This document shows, piece after piece, positions 2,048 through 6,840 of a stretch of DNA of 64,000 nucleotides; position 1 is the stretch's first letter; each line of letters starts with the position of its first letter. The notes below the pieces were generated by a model. That model had not been told where the DNA came from. It searched no databases and saw only the letters and a list, made by a program, of their open reading frames with translations. Where the stretch lies: NCBI GenBank assembly GCA_965205975.1, contig OZ242195.1, forward strand, positions 3,328,001 to 3,392,000. Direction: 5' to 3'. The translations under genes were made by a program, and so were the position numbers. This DNA is from Candidatus Latescibacterota bacterium (lineage in GTDB: Bacteria; Latescibacterota; UBA2968).

Positions 2048-2216
2048 ATAAACCCTCCTAAAAAATTAATTCGACTTTTCTATTGCTTCCACTACTCCCA
2101 CCTTTACTACCACCGCGACTAACGTTTGATTTACCTATTTTCTTACCTCCTTTCTCGTTGGCATCCATCGCCTCAGAGGAATACTACCCAATTGAAACGA
2201 TCATTTTCTCGCATGT

Positions 2217-2459
2217 TCAGTACAGTTCTGTTCTGCGCGTTCGCATAGCATCTGCTTGATCAATCTCTTTTCCCAGTGCCAAGAGATGCGCTGGGCGACC
2301 AAAAGGCTTTAGTGGTCGACGAGGCGAGGCACCGCAATCTAAATTCGGCTTGTTGCGGTTGAGATGCCGAATTTGTCTATGCGCTCTTAGCGCACTGTCT
2401 AATAGGGGTATTTCATCAAGGAAAACAAGGCCAGAGTGGCCATCTTCGGCATCGCTCAT
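2217..2459 (-). pseudogene. Internally deleted paralog (80-aa mini-ORF) of the large gene at 4789-6543
   Basis: MSDAEDGHSGLVF matches MSVAEDGPSGLVF and is joined to RAHRQIRHLN...EIDQADAMRTRRTELY, which matches the C-terminus of the large gene. Confidence 0.85.
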
Positions 2460-2608
2460 ACCGACTCCTCTACTAAGCAAGCCATATCCCTGTAGAACAA
2501 TCAACTCAGGATTTTGAGATCCTGTTTCAAATTGCGAACCCGCAGGATTCCCGACAGAAGAAGTGTCGAGACCGGAAGAGATGCAAACTGCATCAAAGCA
2601 CGAGGTTC
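2460..2608 (-). promoter_or_regulatory. Conserved structured 5' leader, copy 2
   Basis: Near-identical to 6544-6693; four hairpins with differences concentrated in the loops. Confidence 0.55.
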
Positions 2609-2615
2609 GACCCAA

Positions 2616-2643
2616 AGAATAGCCAATTTGTCTGGATTGTCAA
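2616..2643 (-). promoter_or_regulatory. Sigma70-type promoter, copy 2
   Basis: TTGACA-N16-TATTCT on the minus strand, conserved with copy 1. Confidence 0.65.
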
Positions 2644-2676
2644 CCCATATTTGGAAAATTCAAAGAATTTTTCAAC

Positions 2677-2771
2677 TGGATTCCCGCTACAAGCCTGCGG
2701 GAATGACGGGTGAGGAATATGGGAGTGATAAGTCGGGCGTTTGTCTTTCACCCTTCACTCGCATTCCCAAC
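2677..2771. repeat. ~95-bp palindromic insertion (MITE/REP-like)
   Basis: Begins TGGATTCCCGC-TACAAGCCT-GCGGGAATGAC; absent from the paralogous site at ~6758; CAAC duplicated at 2673-2676 and 2768-2771. Confidence 0.6.
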
Positions 2772-2870
2772 AAAAAACGCCCCAGCGATTGCCGGAATAA
2801 TGATCTCTCCAATTTACAGATCCCGCCACCTTCTCACACGGGATGTTTCCTCAAAGAAATTGTAACCGCA

Positions 2871-2914
2871 AAAAAATAAACTGCCCCGACAATATCTGTC
2901 AGAGCAGTTTTTTA
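2871..2914. terminator. Bidirectional terminator-like hairpin
   Basis: AAACTGC..GACA-loop-TGTC..GCAGTTT with A and T tracts, downstream of the radical SAM gene. Confidence 0.55.
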
Positions 2915-4399: not shown

Positions 4400-4635
4400 T
4401 TTGGAACTCCTTTCGCAAATGGCATTAAGGGGACGATGTTTCTATCCCAGTTGTCGTGAAAGGATGCATCGGGGCACAATCCCAAAGGGATCAAGAGTGA
4501 GGCTATTGGAGCCTCGAAGTGCGACGCATCGGGAGGGAATACTTTTGAAGCTATTTATTGGCAGAGGTGTTGACGGGTAAAAGAGATACCGTGGTCAGCA
4601 CCAGCCAATTACTTGCGTTTTGGCGGAGCGTTGGT

Positions 4636-4737
4636 TTAACCGCCGCATGAGGGATTGCCGGTTCTACTGGGCCAGCCAGCACCTTGTCCACGGCTGCTGC
4701 CTTGACCACCACCGCGATTAATTCTTGATTTCGCCAT
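4636..4737 (-). CDS. 33-aa Gly/Ser-rich micropeptide MAKSRINRGGGQGSSRGQGAGWPSRTGNPSCGG (not in the ORF track)
   Basis: AAAGGAGGTGA RBS just upstream of ATG 4737; in-frame TNAPPKRK follows the TAA (to 4609); a degenerate paralog lies at ~2059-2139. Confidence 0.6.
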   Translation of the reverse strand: MAKSRINRGGGQGSSRGQGAGWPSRTGNPSCGG

Positions 4738-4788
4738 AATATCACCTCCTTTCTCATTGTTATTTATCGCCTCAGAGAGACACTATAA

Positions 4789-6543
4789 CTACCAGTACAA
4801 TTCTGTTCTGCGCGTTCGCATAGCATCTGCTTGATCGATCTCTTTTCCCAGTGCCAAGAGATGTGCCTGGCGAAGCCACCAAAAGGCTTCAAATAGGGGT
4901 CGGCGAGGCGAGGCACCGCGCTCTAAATTTGGTTTTCTGCGGTTGAGATGCCGAATTTGTCTGTGCGCTCTTTTCGCAAATTCGCGGACATTTTTATTGG
5001 GATCGTTTTTAGAGAGCCAGAAAAGCGTTCTGTGTGCTCTTCCTCCGGGATTAACGCGCAATGCCGCCAATGCCCGCACATAACACTGTCGCCATATAGA
5101 CCGAGGTTCTACGAAATCTCCATCTGCATAATCCGATACTTTCTCGCTGCGACTTGTGTCATTTTTTTTTGTTTTCAGCCTTTCAAGACAAAACCTTGCA
5201 AACTCTTCGCGCAACCCCTGCAAGTGCGGGTCTCTATTCAGTTCACTCTGAAGATTCCGAAGATCCATAGAGATTTCAATCCAAGAAGGGATTTTATTAT
5301 ATGGATGAGGCGGAGGCTCTTTATCAGATCCGGACCAGTGGCTAAGATCCGAGGCAACGGCTGGTTCAGTCATCTCCGTGAAAGCCAGTAATAAGGACTT
5401 CAAGCATCGCCACGGAGAGGAAAAAATTAACAACACCTCAAAAGCCATATGATAAAAATCGTAAACGGGCGCACCTGTTGGATCCTTATGTTTAAAGTCT
5501 TCAGGCGTCTCTCGCAGCACTTTCCGCAATATTCCCATGTGTTTGGTAGCACTTGCGACAAGCCGATTTCTCAGTTCATCTGACAGACCAGACTCCAACC
5601 CGCCCATACCCCTACTGTAAATCAATACAGATAACCACCACCAGGCCTTGAGCAAAGATGCGCGTCCTCGACTTAACTCAGGTTCTCTTTCATCCAAAAG
5701 TTCCAGGAATGGGATTAACTCATCTGCAACAATCTGCCATCCGTAACCTGCGTGCTTCAAACGTTCCTTACCCGACGCAAAGCCAATATTCGTAGCATAT
5801 TCAATGGCATGCAGGAGACCAAAAATTTTATCGCCCAAAACATCTTCCGGAAAACTGGAAAACACTTGTAAAACGGTGTCCAATCTGATTATATCGCAAC
5901 GTTCTGCGTTATCCCGGAATCGCCAGATTAACCAAAATTCAATCTGTTCAGGATCACTAAAATCATTATTGGACCATCCTTGTCGCCGAATCGGATTCAA
6001 CAACTCAAAATTGACGACCAGATCTAAAGGCACGCCTTCTGAAAAAAGAAATGGAATCAGGTCAAAGAATAGGAAAGTATGCGCATCCCTAATTTCTATG
6101 AGCTTGTGCCAATCCAAACGTCTTGCACTAAACACCGCCTGCCTTTGAAACTCGTCAACCCACGCGGGAATAACCCAGTCTCTACCTGATTTCACCAGCT
6201 TATCATTGGGCTGAACCACTTCGCTGTAGATAGGCCCAAACCCGAGCAAAAAGCTCAAAAGCAGTGATAGGCGGGTTTGGCGGTCTTTCTCGGTTTGATC
6301 CGGCTCTCCTAACTTGTCCACGACCCCAAGCAGGACACGCTCAAAATAATCCGCAAACTCGCCTTTGAATACAGCGTCACTGCTGCGATCGCCAAAACAG
6401 TCTGGACGTTCAAAAACGCGAATTAGCCATTCCTCGTCATCACGGGAAAAACCAGCGTCCTGAAGGCACTGTTTTACAGGAAATATTTCTGAATCATCTA
6501 AAGGGAAAACAAGGCCAGAAGGGCCATCTTCAGCTACGCTCAT
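4789..6543 (-). CDS. Large all-alpha hypothetical protein (~584 aa) with a HEAT-like C-terminal motif
   Basis: Long ORF; ATG at 6543 with GAGGAG RBS; Trp/Leu-rich helical composition; no family recognised. Confidence 0.8.
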   Translation of the reverse strand: MSVAEDGPSGLVFPLDDSEIFPVKQCLQDAGFSRDDEEWLIRVFERPDCFGDRSSDAVFKGEFADYFERVLLGVVDKLGEPDQTEKDRQTRLSLLLSFLLGFGPIYSEVVQPNDKLVKSGRDWVIPAWVDEFQRQAVFSARRLDWHKLIEIRDAHTFLFFDLIPFLFSEGVPLDLVVNFELLNPIRRQGWSNNDFSDPEQIEFWLIWRFRDNAERCDIIRLDTVLQVFSSFPEDVLGDKIFGLLHAIEYATNIGFASGKERLKHAGYGWQIVADELIPFLELLDEREPELSRGRASLLKAWWWLSVLIYSRGMGGLESGLSDELRNRLVASATKHMGILRKVLRETPEDFKHKDPTGAPVYDFYHMAFEVLLIFSSPWRCLKSLLLAFTEMTEPAVASDLSHWSGSDKEPPPHPYNKIPSWIEISMDLRNLQSELNRDPHLQGLREEFARFCLERLKTKKNDTSRSEKVSDYADGDFVEPRSIWRQCYVRALAALRVNPGGRAHRTLFWLSKNDPNKNVREFAKRAHRQIRHLNRRKPNLERGASPRRPLFEAFWWLRQAHLLALGKEIDQADAMRTRRTELYW

Positions 6544-6693
6544 ACCAACTCCTCTGTTAAGCGTCAAGCCATATCCTTGTGAGCAATCAACTCAGAATTT
6601 TGTAATCCTGTCTAGATTGTGAACCCGTAGGATTCCCGACAGAAGAAGTGTCGAGACCGGAAGAGATGCAGATTGCATCAAAGCACGAGGTTC
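6544..6693 (-). promoter_or_regulatory. Conserved structured 5' leader, copy 1 (candidate cis-regulatory RNA)
   Basis: Hairpins GATGCA-ATC-TGCATC, CGACA-N7-TGTCG, GAATCC-TAC-GGGTTC and CAGGAT-N6-ATTCTG. Confidence 0.55.
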
Positions 6694-6700
6694 AAAAAAA

Positions 6701-6729
6701 AGAATATACAATTTGCTCAGATTTGTCAA
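6701..6729 (-). promoter_or_regulatory. Sigma70-type promoter, copy 1
   Basis: TTGACA-N17-TATTCT on the minus strand. Confidence 0.7.
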
Positions 6730-6840
6730 CGCCAAATTTGAAAAATTCCAATTGCTTCCAACAAAAAACGCCCCAGCGCGTGCCGAGGCGTTTCCTTCTT
6801 TTATTACCAGATTTTATTCCGTTTCTCATCCGCGTCTATA

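Follow-up and report, generated by a model that had tools for sequence, protein, structure and literature searches.

A solenoid protein, two RNA leaders and a short peptide probably form an undescribed means of controlling exchangeable antiviral genes in sponge-symbiont bacteria

The stretch of Candidatus Latescibacterota DNA analysed here (the window; 64,000 nucleotides, positions 3,328,001 to 3,392,000 of contig OZ242195.1) carries two related sets of features on its minus strand, referred to as copy A and copy B and summarized in Table 1. The large gene of copy A, here called X, has the length given in the initial annotation when read from its ATG. The promoters of the two copies (6729-6701 and 2643-2616) are the top two of 10 promoter-like sites, a number within chance expectation (shuffles 7.5 ± 3.5), and a TTGACA-type hexamer was seen by eye at the matching place in most relatives. 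RNA motif B occurs only before the radical SAM gene, as a single match in the genome. Copy A is itself beginning to decay. The last ~12 residues are missing from its X allele, which also carries Ser where 94 of 99 sequences have Arg. The peptide of copy A ends after 33 aa at an in-frame TAA (4638-4636), beyond which the conserved tail continues in frame. A near-identical strain, with 1 difference in 2275 nt, has CGA in place of the TGA within the radical SAM gene; readthrough was considered and rejected, as this sister strain has a sense codon there. The TGA, the TAA, RNA motif B and the frameshifts of copy B had not been recorded in the initial annotation.

Table 1. Features of copy A, copy B and the adjoining genes, in window positions
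Feature	Positions	Strand	Details
Sigma-70-type promoter, copy A	6701..6729	-	Predicted; TTGACA-17-TATTCT, 10/12 consensus matches
RNA motif A, copy A	6603..6696	-	Three-way junction opening the ~160-nt leader of X; covariation; 98.5 bits with model R1
Gene X	4789..6543	-	584 aa, HEAT/ARM-like solenoid; ATG at 6543
Peptide gene, copy A	4609..4737	-	Gly/Ser/Arg/Lys-rich; GGAGGT ribosome-binding site; ATG 4737; alignment of 23 intact relatives
Hairpin directly 3' of peptide stop	4556..4608	-	Predicted fold; similar inverted repeat in relatives by eye
RNA motif B	4452..4533	-	Three-way junction before effector; 90.2 bits; covariation
B12-binding radical SAM gene	2972..4399	-	PADLOC PDC-M51A match; in-frame TGA 3391-3389
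Terminator ending copy A	2878..2910	-	15-pair stem and T run
Duplication junction	2770..2857	-	~32 nt of uvrA 3' end, sequence normally after the rfbB stop, half of the rfbB terminator
Promoter, copy B	2616..2643	-	TTGACA/TATTCT
RNA motif A, copy B	2518..2611	-	Still intact; 95.2 bits
X pseudogene remnant, copy B	2217..2459	-	First ~40 nt and last ~180 nt fused over a ~1.5-kb deletion
Dead peptide start, copy B	2058..2138	-	ATA 2138; truncated, no RNA B after it
497-aa hypothetical protein	554..2047	-	Neighbour, not regular cargo
92-aa partner of the 497-aa gene	260..538	-	Hydrophobic N-terminus; follows the 497-aa gene also in G013 and G001

The two copies were compared using BLASTN (window positions 1-9000 against the whole genome) and piecewise alignments. 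Positions 2420-2664 match 6504-6751 at 84.8% identity (E 1e-69), and 2088-2394 match 4687-4978 at 75.6% (E 2e-59); the same BLASTN search did not find a third copy. All the elements that the initial annotation had listed as shared between 2059-2787 and 4609-6778 are present in the described minus-strand order, at 76-85% identity, including the peptide start changed from ATG to ATA. Contigs from two samples span both copies and the junction, so an assembly artefact is excluded. The junction was read by comparison with two related genomes (G019 and G008), and its 2826-2857 segment matches the end of uvrA at genome positions 3326716-3326747. In copy B the X remnant bears frameshifting indels, RNA motif A differs at 14 of 94 nt from that of copy B in the related genome G013, and the deletion junction and the ATA are identical in the window genome (G000) and G013. 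Copy B is an old, internally deleted, dead duplicate from a single ancestral duplication, shared by descent with G013; this old duplication of the rfbB-uvrA interval left a promoter and leader before an unrelated gene pair. The initial annotation had taken the two copies to carry different cargo. The B12 radical SAM gene is cargo, whereas the 497- and 92-aa pair has no RNA B upstream and in G001 lies at the same site, directly behind rfbB, with no module. The 497-aa protein has 140 homologues, some named Myxococcota and Burkholderia, and its gene occurs in 3 of 61 related genomes.

Considered by itself, copy B is well described as a one-off decayed duplication, given the deletion and ATA common to G000 and G013 and the frameshifts. 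As an account of the whole locus without wider meaning, this explanation is very improbable and is refuted for the module, which is conserved across 44 loci from two phyla as well as in distant metagenomic loci. The order of its parts is promoter-like site, RNA A, gene X, peptide gene, RNA B and effector, with a basic peptide of ~50 aa between X and RNA B. The leader (RNA A) is retained in 43 of 44 homologous loci and the peptide, as scored by script, in 36 of 43, and the cargo varies, so a one-off duplication is not borne out. X, RNA A and RNA B occupy an identical set of 11 of the 61 related genomes, with one effector apiece, and neither RNA was found in the 50 genomes without X (most RNA motif counts include sequences used to build the models). 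It is very probable that a fixed front end, consisting of X, two folded RNA leaders and a short peptide, and one swappable enzyme together constitute a module. The idea of a reusable module with variable effectors, probably for defence, is thus supported by the homologues, and more firmly than by the window taken alone, although the tandem pair that first suggested it is not the evidence. The module is larger than the initial annotation saw. In two loci (L092, L093) the next gene lies on the opposite strand. X was absent from the plasmid and phage collections searched and is carried by only two viral contigs, so mobility of the module is not demonstrated; a check for an integron or site-specific cassette array found no recombinase among 13 window proteins scanned. 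From the metatranscriptome run X22 came only contigs of relatives, covering parts of X and of the radical SAM gene; the run is uninformative on expression.

The effector in 43 of the 44 loci comes from one of three groups: viperin, which may or may not have its kinase, beta-CASP nuclease, and B12 radical SAM enzyme. As first cargo, beta-CASP is found in 20 loci, viperin in 15 and B12 radical SAM in 8, with none in 1 (a short contig); of the 61 genomes, five have viperin, two the B12 radical SAM and four the short beta-CASP, every one of them directly behind X and one to a genome. The initial annotation had the module capturing variable effectors, but the cargo comes only from three enzyme families, which form a closed set, and is not freely captured. 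The viperins match NCBIfam NF038283 (317 bits in L026 and 284 in L066, cut-off 180), a family with no match in the window genome. The radical SAM protein matches PDC-M51A (221 bits, E 7e-66 for the 5' piece in the window; 310 bits for the intact gene of G013), and the kinase beside viperin matches PDC-M51B, no kinase gene of that cluster following the radical SAM gene in the window or G013. The beta-CASP cargo has no PADLOC match and is 68% identical to a resident paralogue of 835-856 aa. In L083 the cargo has a DUF4258 gene ahead of it.

Among close relatives, the unit of peptide, RNA B and effector is swapped or repeated at a fixed site. On a quick tree of X, cargo changes number 20 against a shuffled mean of 19.8, that is, they are scattered as if random. 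Such swapping would proceed by recombination through the conserved flanks, and virus pressure would keep it up. A doubtful alternative, which concerns evolution only and fits either mechanism discussed below, holds that there was no exchange, and that an ancestral three-cassette operon underwent differential loss by deletion between repeats. It draws on the 7 of 44 loci with two cargos and on the cargo nuclease tree (FastTree, first 470 residues), which largely tracks X subclades; nevertheless, no three-cassette locus was found among the 44, the cassettes occur in both orders (viperin-nuclease and nuclease-viperin, radical SAM-nuclease and nuclease-radical SAM), and very close X alleles within one genus bear all three cargos. 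Re-capture of the nuclease by each host from its resident paralogue was also considered and rejected, as the residents form one clade; only the L025 nuclease leans toward them.

Both RNAs share a layout of stem, short linker, hairpin, pyrimidine linker and a hairpin stacked on the closing stem. Compensatory changes occur in 16 of 22 pairs of RNA A (45 sequences; 0/500 shuffles) and in 11 of 23 pairs of RNA B (32 sequences; covariation score above 500/500 shuffles). Their sequences differ, to the extent that model R1 misses the B sites and R2 the A sites, and Rfam returned no match to either (window positions 1-9000, E up to 1), giving one unrelated weak match at 104-145. In L051, L055, L058, L063 and L075 the second cargo has a second RNA B before it. 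Neither model reaches the distant loci, and R2 gave nothing significant before the cargo in 13 of them (best E 7-8). With a strict junction descriptor, shaped after inspecting these distant sequences, 5 of 17 distant loci show a fit no more than 110 nt from the X stop, against 3 of 136 shuffles; two of the five matches are related loci.

The peptides are basic, and three unrelated short motifs or cores occupy the one slot. Loci with two peptide copies frequently have one that is dead (L050, L051); dead copies before apparently intact cargo (L050, L051, L054, L057) would, if those cargos are expressed, argue against a leader-peptide attenuator. Plasmid records gave 42 and 5 matches for two of the cores and none for the third, and the phage collection gave none for the one core searched. 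Eight peptide contexts in those records, one of them without annotation, showed no consistent neighbour.

X belongs to a family of 471 representatives at 50% identity and is predicted as an all-alpha HEAT/ARM-like solenoid (AlphaFold pLDDT 87). Its C-terminal ~220 aa are conserved, Arg/Trp-rich and basic (median net charge +4.5), whereas the N-terminal part is variable and acidic (-10); at the 85% level across 99 sequences, 10 Arg and 7 Trp are among the conserved columns. In 10 of 18 non-redundant loci, distant homologues, 36-48% identical over the C-terminal part, stand upstream of the same enzymes as in the module. At E 0.1, X matched no family of Pfam, NCBIfam or PADLOC, save one fragment at 0.07, nor any helix-turn-helix, WYL, STAS, peptidase or kinase family. 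A fold search, as proposed with the initial annotation, gave only generic helical-repeat matches: the best hits of the whole protein (Z 9.1, rmsd 4.4, 246 aligned) and of the C-terminal 251 aa (Z 9.0, rmsd 1.9, 73 aligned) are tied with many unrelated solenoids, and no specific resemblance to known RNA-binding proteins appeared. Sequence searches of the PDB and ESM Atlas returned no specific match.

The usual ligands of HEAT/ARM solenoids are proteins or peptides. X could accordingly be a partner protein of the effectors or the peptide, whether as sensor, scaffold or inhibitor, with the RNAs as independent cis elements for processing, stabilisation or ligand switching. The best fold matches are importin- and CRM1-like, though non-specific, and X has an acidic part where the peptides are basic; the complex predicted for X of L025 with its own peptide scored 0.00, is uninformative and was not used as evidence. 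We consider this reading unlikely, since one protein would have to fit three unrelated enzyme folds and three unrelated, fast-swapped peptide cores, RNA B is the one feature common to all cargos, and the RNAs were not found in the genomes lacking X.

That X acts through the RNAs is, as judged from sequence, about evenly balanced between true and false. X would bind both three-way junctions through its conserved basic C-terminal helices; on RNA A it would limit its own synthesis, and on RNA B it would hold back effector translation until released by a signal, perhaps read by the variable N-terminal part. The peptide would act as a product in trans rather than as an attenuator. With 60-120 nt between each junction and the ribosome-binding site downstream of it, it is not obvious how occlusion could be direct. 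Protein-bound autoregulatory mRNA leaders are known from ribosomal-protein operons and the rne 5' UTR. The module resembles them in placing a structured leader before the putative binding protein's own gene, and differs in the second, distinct junction before each exchangeable cargo and in lacking an Rfam match. The furthest-reaching version, in which X is a new class of immune regulator, a solenoid receptor on three-way-junction RNAs with infection-switched translation and an exchangeable peptide co-signal or decoy, is conceivable yet on balance improbable.

An antiviral role of the module is likely. To our knowledge, viperin is the only one of the three cargo families with established anti-phage activity, PDC-M51 being a candidate. 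The module might instead be a stress or RNA/nucleotide-metabolism operon, with X and cargo serving to modify or turn over RNA such as the module RNAs or rRNA. For beta-CASP and B12 radical SAM, two of the three cargos, a role against phage is unproven; the resident paralogue to which the cargo nuclease is related is widespread, and the conserved His, Asp, Glu and Arg of X could form an active site. Weighing against it, viperin is so often the first cargo, and the module is patchy with random cargo turnover, as is typical of defence loci; there is also a type III restriction system 1.9 kb upstream. We regard the metabolic explanation as quite unlikely. The best explanation overall, to which we would assign an even chance, is that the module controls enzyme cassettes which can replace one another and are probably antiviral.

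PADLOC's PDC-M51 pairs a B12 radical SAM with a kinase, and the window cargo matches its first component; in the module, by contrast, the radical SAM has no adjacent kinase, the kinase travels with viperin, and X is not in PADLOC. In its main text, the preprint on PADLOC candidates makes no mention of M51. CapW/BrxR, CapH with CapP and CapK with CapS are regulators of immune operons (PMC13373217, PMC11662680, PMC13228613) and resemble X in being encoded upstream of diverse, exchangeable immune operons. They are DNA-binding transcription repressors, whereas X has no match to a helix-turn-helix, WYL, peptidase or kinase family. X is also encoded in the same direction as its cargo and is accompanied by a peptide and two conserved RNA structures. 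Partners named for prokaryotic viperin operons in the accessible parts of two reports are kinases, HicA and RelE (10.1101/2023.09.13.557418, 10.1101/2023.12.08.570793); solenoid proteins, leader RNAs and peptides are not named in those parts. The module is similar to these operons in having a true viperin, frequently accompanied by its kinase, among its cargos, but here viperin is exchangeable with two other enzymes. A full-text search found no published description of the module, the neighbours given in the original prokaryotic viperin paper lying outside its scope.

The module bears on how bacteria keep viperin-like enzymes quiet until needed: the published immune-operon regulators that we found act on DNA, and the regulation of prokaryotic viperin loci is left as a question in the accessible part of 10.1101/2023.12.08.570793. 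The X family, the two RNA elements and the peptide provide defined candidates for RNA-level control. Because they are interchangeable with viperin as cargo, a beta-CASP clade and a B12 radical SAM clade become strong candidates for new antiviral chemistry. If true, the reading of X as a receptor would provide a post-transcriptional counterpart of an inducible antiviral programme that controls viperin.

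Both minus-strand copies of the repeat, copy A and the internally deleted duplicate copy B, carry the promoter-like sites, the leader, both ends of gene X, a GGAGGT site and the start of the peptide gene, all in the order that the initial annotation had claimed. Comparison of window segments with the whole 5.56-Mb genome recovers two pairs of matching segments (see table) and no third copy, and both copies are spanned by contigs from two samples. The initial interpretation is partly supported: relatives bear out a reusable module with variable effectors, but the tandem pair is no evidence for it, copy B being a relic. 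That copy goes back to a single old event: the related genome G013 has the identical deletion junction, ATA codon and join to the 497-aa gene. The RNA A leader of copy B still reaches 95 bits in the window and 92 bits in G013. At the junction between the copies, about 32 nt from the 3′ end of uvrA adjoin sequence that in other species lies downstream of rfbB, which suggests either a duplication of the entire rfbB-uvrA interval or a stacking of two alleles. This interval is variable in the genus, with the module in 4 of 21 genomes and many others empty. The 497-aa and 92-aa genes downstream of copy B, previously taken for its cargo, are a neighbour now lying behind a leftover promoter and leader rather than a regular cargo, since RNA B motif searches found no RNA B ahead of the 497-aa gene and the related genome G001 has a 497+108-aa pair in this interval without the module. 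Copy A is worn as well: its radical SAM gene has a fresh nonsense codon absent in a near-identical strain, its peptide ends at 33 aa, and its X is without the last ~12 residues and one near-invariant Arg. Gene conversion between the RNA A hairpins of the two copies is suggested by their sequences. In genome G018, the promoter and first ~17 nt of RNA A are left just after rfbB (locus L146), and the module lies elsewhere.

Features of the window, of its genome (G000) and of loci in related genomes (L handles, loci; other G handles, genomes)
Feature	Position	Strand	Remark
Repeat segments	2420-2664; 6504-6751	-	84.8% match
Repeat segments	2088-2394; 4687-4978	-	75.6% match
RNA A hairpins	2545-2575; 6630-6660	-	identical to each other, unlike both G013 copies
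497-aa gene	554-2047	-	first half with E-D-QxK pattern (by eye), presumably nuclease-like; second half hydrophobic, Gly/Ala-rich; ESM Atlas neighbours without names, one YeeR_C-like
Dispersed short repeats	2670-2712; 6807-6940; 7969-8021; 8110-8180		several families, tens of genome copies; one such element lies ahead of the module in copy B, G012 and G015
RelB-like antitoxin	8192-8416	-	NF048017, 78.5 bits; no toxin ORF adjoining
Type III restriction-modification pair	8435-13913	-	Res 885 aa, Mod 513 aa, split by 319-aa gene on other strand; just upstream of rfbB; pair also in G012, G013, G015 loci
Pentapeptide-repeat gene	13913-15576	-	two ORFs (233 + 319 aa); single ~460-490-aa ORF in G012 and G001
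Resident beta-CASP protein	G000:C1:3516941-3519448	-	835 aa, long extra C-terminal part; 68% identical to one of the cargo nucleases; most genomes of the family have homologues
Promoter + RNA A	L063:9967-10061; L064:9931-10025		after gene X, not before; ahead of cargo cassettes
Peptide gene	L022:10368-10547; L037:9889-10047; L047:9885-10040		MAKS start kept, core swapped; in L037 and L047 new core, then remnant of old tail
~130-aa gene after X stop	L067:2981-3400		distant locus, as are the others with this gene (L081, L084, L088, L089, L091); before cargo where contig extends that far; no Pfam match (L067)

The comparison covered 44 loci: the window, 42 related loci and genome G034, the relatives being titled Ca. 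Latescibacterota and Ca. Poribacteria. In 43 of them X is followed by a beta-CASP nuclease (20), a viperin (15) or a B12 radical SAM enzyme (8) as first gene family; in the remaining one the contig ends. Seven loci have two cargos, the second preceded by a second RNA B in five, and broken cargos occur as well (L039, L058). On a quick tree of X, cargo labels change 20 times against 19.8 in shuffled data (as low in 133 of 200 shuffles), as many as expected by chance, which indicates that cargo is exchanged faster than X diverges. The viperin passes the curated cut-off, the radical SAM enzyme matches PADLOC candidate PDC-M51A and a viperin-linked kinase matches PDC-M51B; the nuclease has no PADLOC match. 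Viperin partners named in two preprints include kinases, HicA and RelE (10.1101/2023.09.13.557418, 10.1101/2023.12.08.570793). Of the 43 related loci, 36 gave a core-bearing peptide in a scripted search, with three unrelated cores (23, 10 and 2 loci) and one chimera, and three further peptides were recognised by eye. Dead peptide copies stand ahead of intact-looking cargo, and two of the three cores are also present on plasmids that lack X.

RNA A and RNA B are both three-way junctions of like layout, although neither model matches the other's sites and Rfam has no match for either. RNA A was folded with RNAalifold, and three pairs were added; across 45 sequences, 95.7% of cells are paired and 16 of 22 pairs have changes on both sides. 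This exceeds every one of 500 shuffles and every slid control, although the way in which the structure was chosen favours it against the latter. For RNA B (32 sequences), set by eye and likewise favoured, the values are 91.3% and 11 of 23, with one of the 500 shuffles reaching that pair count and none reaching the score. At E up to 0.01, R1 (RNA A) matches 43 and R2 (RNA B) 39 of the 44 loci, mostly training sequences; outside the training set, R1 matches L038, L072, L074 and L075, and R2 matches 12 loci. Whole-genome searches place X, RNA A and RNA B in the same 11 of 61 genomes. In these searches the effectors turned up nowhere but behind X, one per genome: viperin in 5, this type of radical SAM in 2 and the short nuclease in 4. 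Both results are a pattern rather than a test, the genomes being kin and some incomplete.

The X family numbers 471 representatives at 50% identity. A wider survey gave 28 loci, of which 3 fall in the close clade and the remaining 25 represent 18 distinct loci. In 10 of these 18 the first or second gene is a viperin (5, one a fragment), a beta-CASP nuclease (3) or a B12 radical SAM gene (2); in six the contig runs out within about 1.1 kb, and in two the following gene is on the opposite strand. The sponge-clade models R1 and R2 do not reach these loci; a strict junction descriptor, shaped on these sequences, fits 5 of 17 loci, compared with 3 of 136 shuffles, two of the five fits being related. 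In L066 a third-core peptide follows the viperin. By eye, the X modules of L066 and L067 lie inside viral or integrative elements, adjoining terminase-like and recombinase-like genes.

X is predicted to be an all-alpha solenoid (pLDDT 87), for which fold searches returned only generic matches; its C-terminal ~220 aa form a conserved, basic part rich in Arg and Trp, and the remainder is variable and acidic. A role as a protein scaffold is rather unlikely, and a non-defence role for the module more unlikely still. We favour, with about even confidence, a reading in which X would bind both RNAs and gate translation of the cassettes, because RNA B is the sole feature common to three unrelated enzymes, a similar structure stands at the start of the X gene itself, neither RNA turned up in those of the 61 genomes that lack X, and the conserved part of X is basic and aromatic. 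Full-text searches of openly accessible literature turned up no description of the module. It is undescribed and conserved, resembles a control unit, and carries viperin, nuclease or radical SAM enzymes as cassettes that replace one another.
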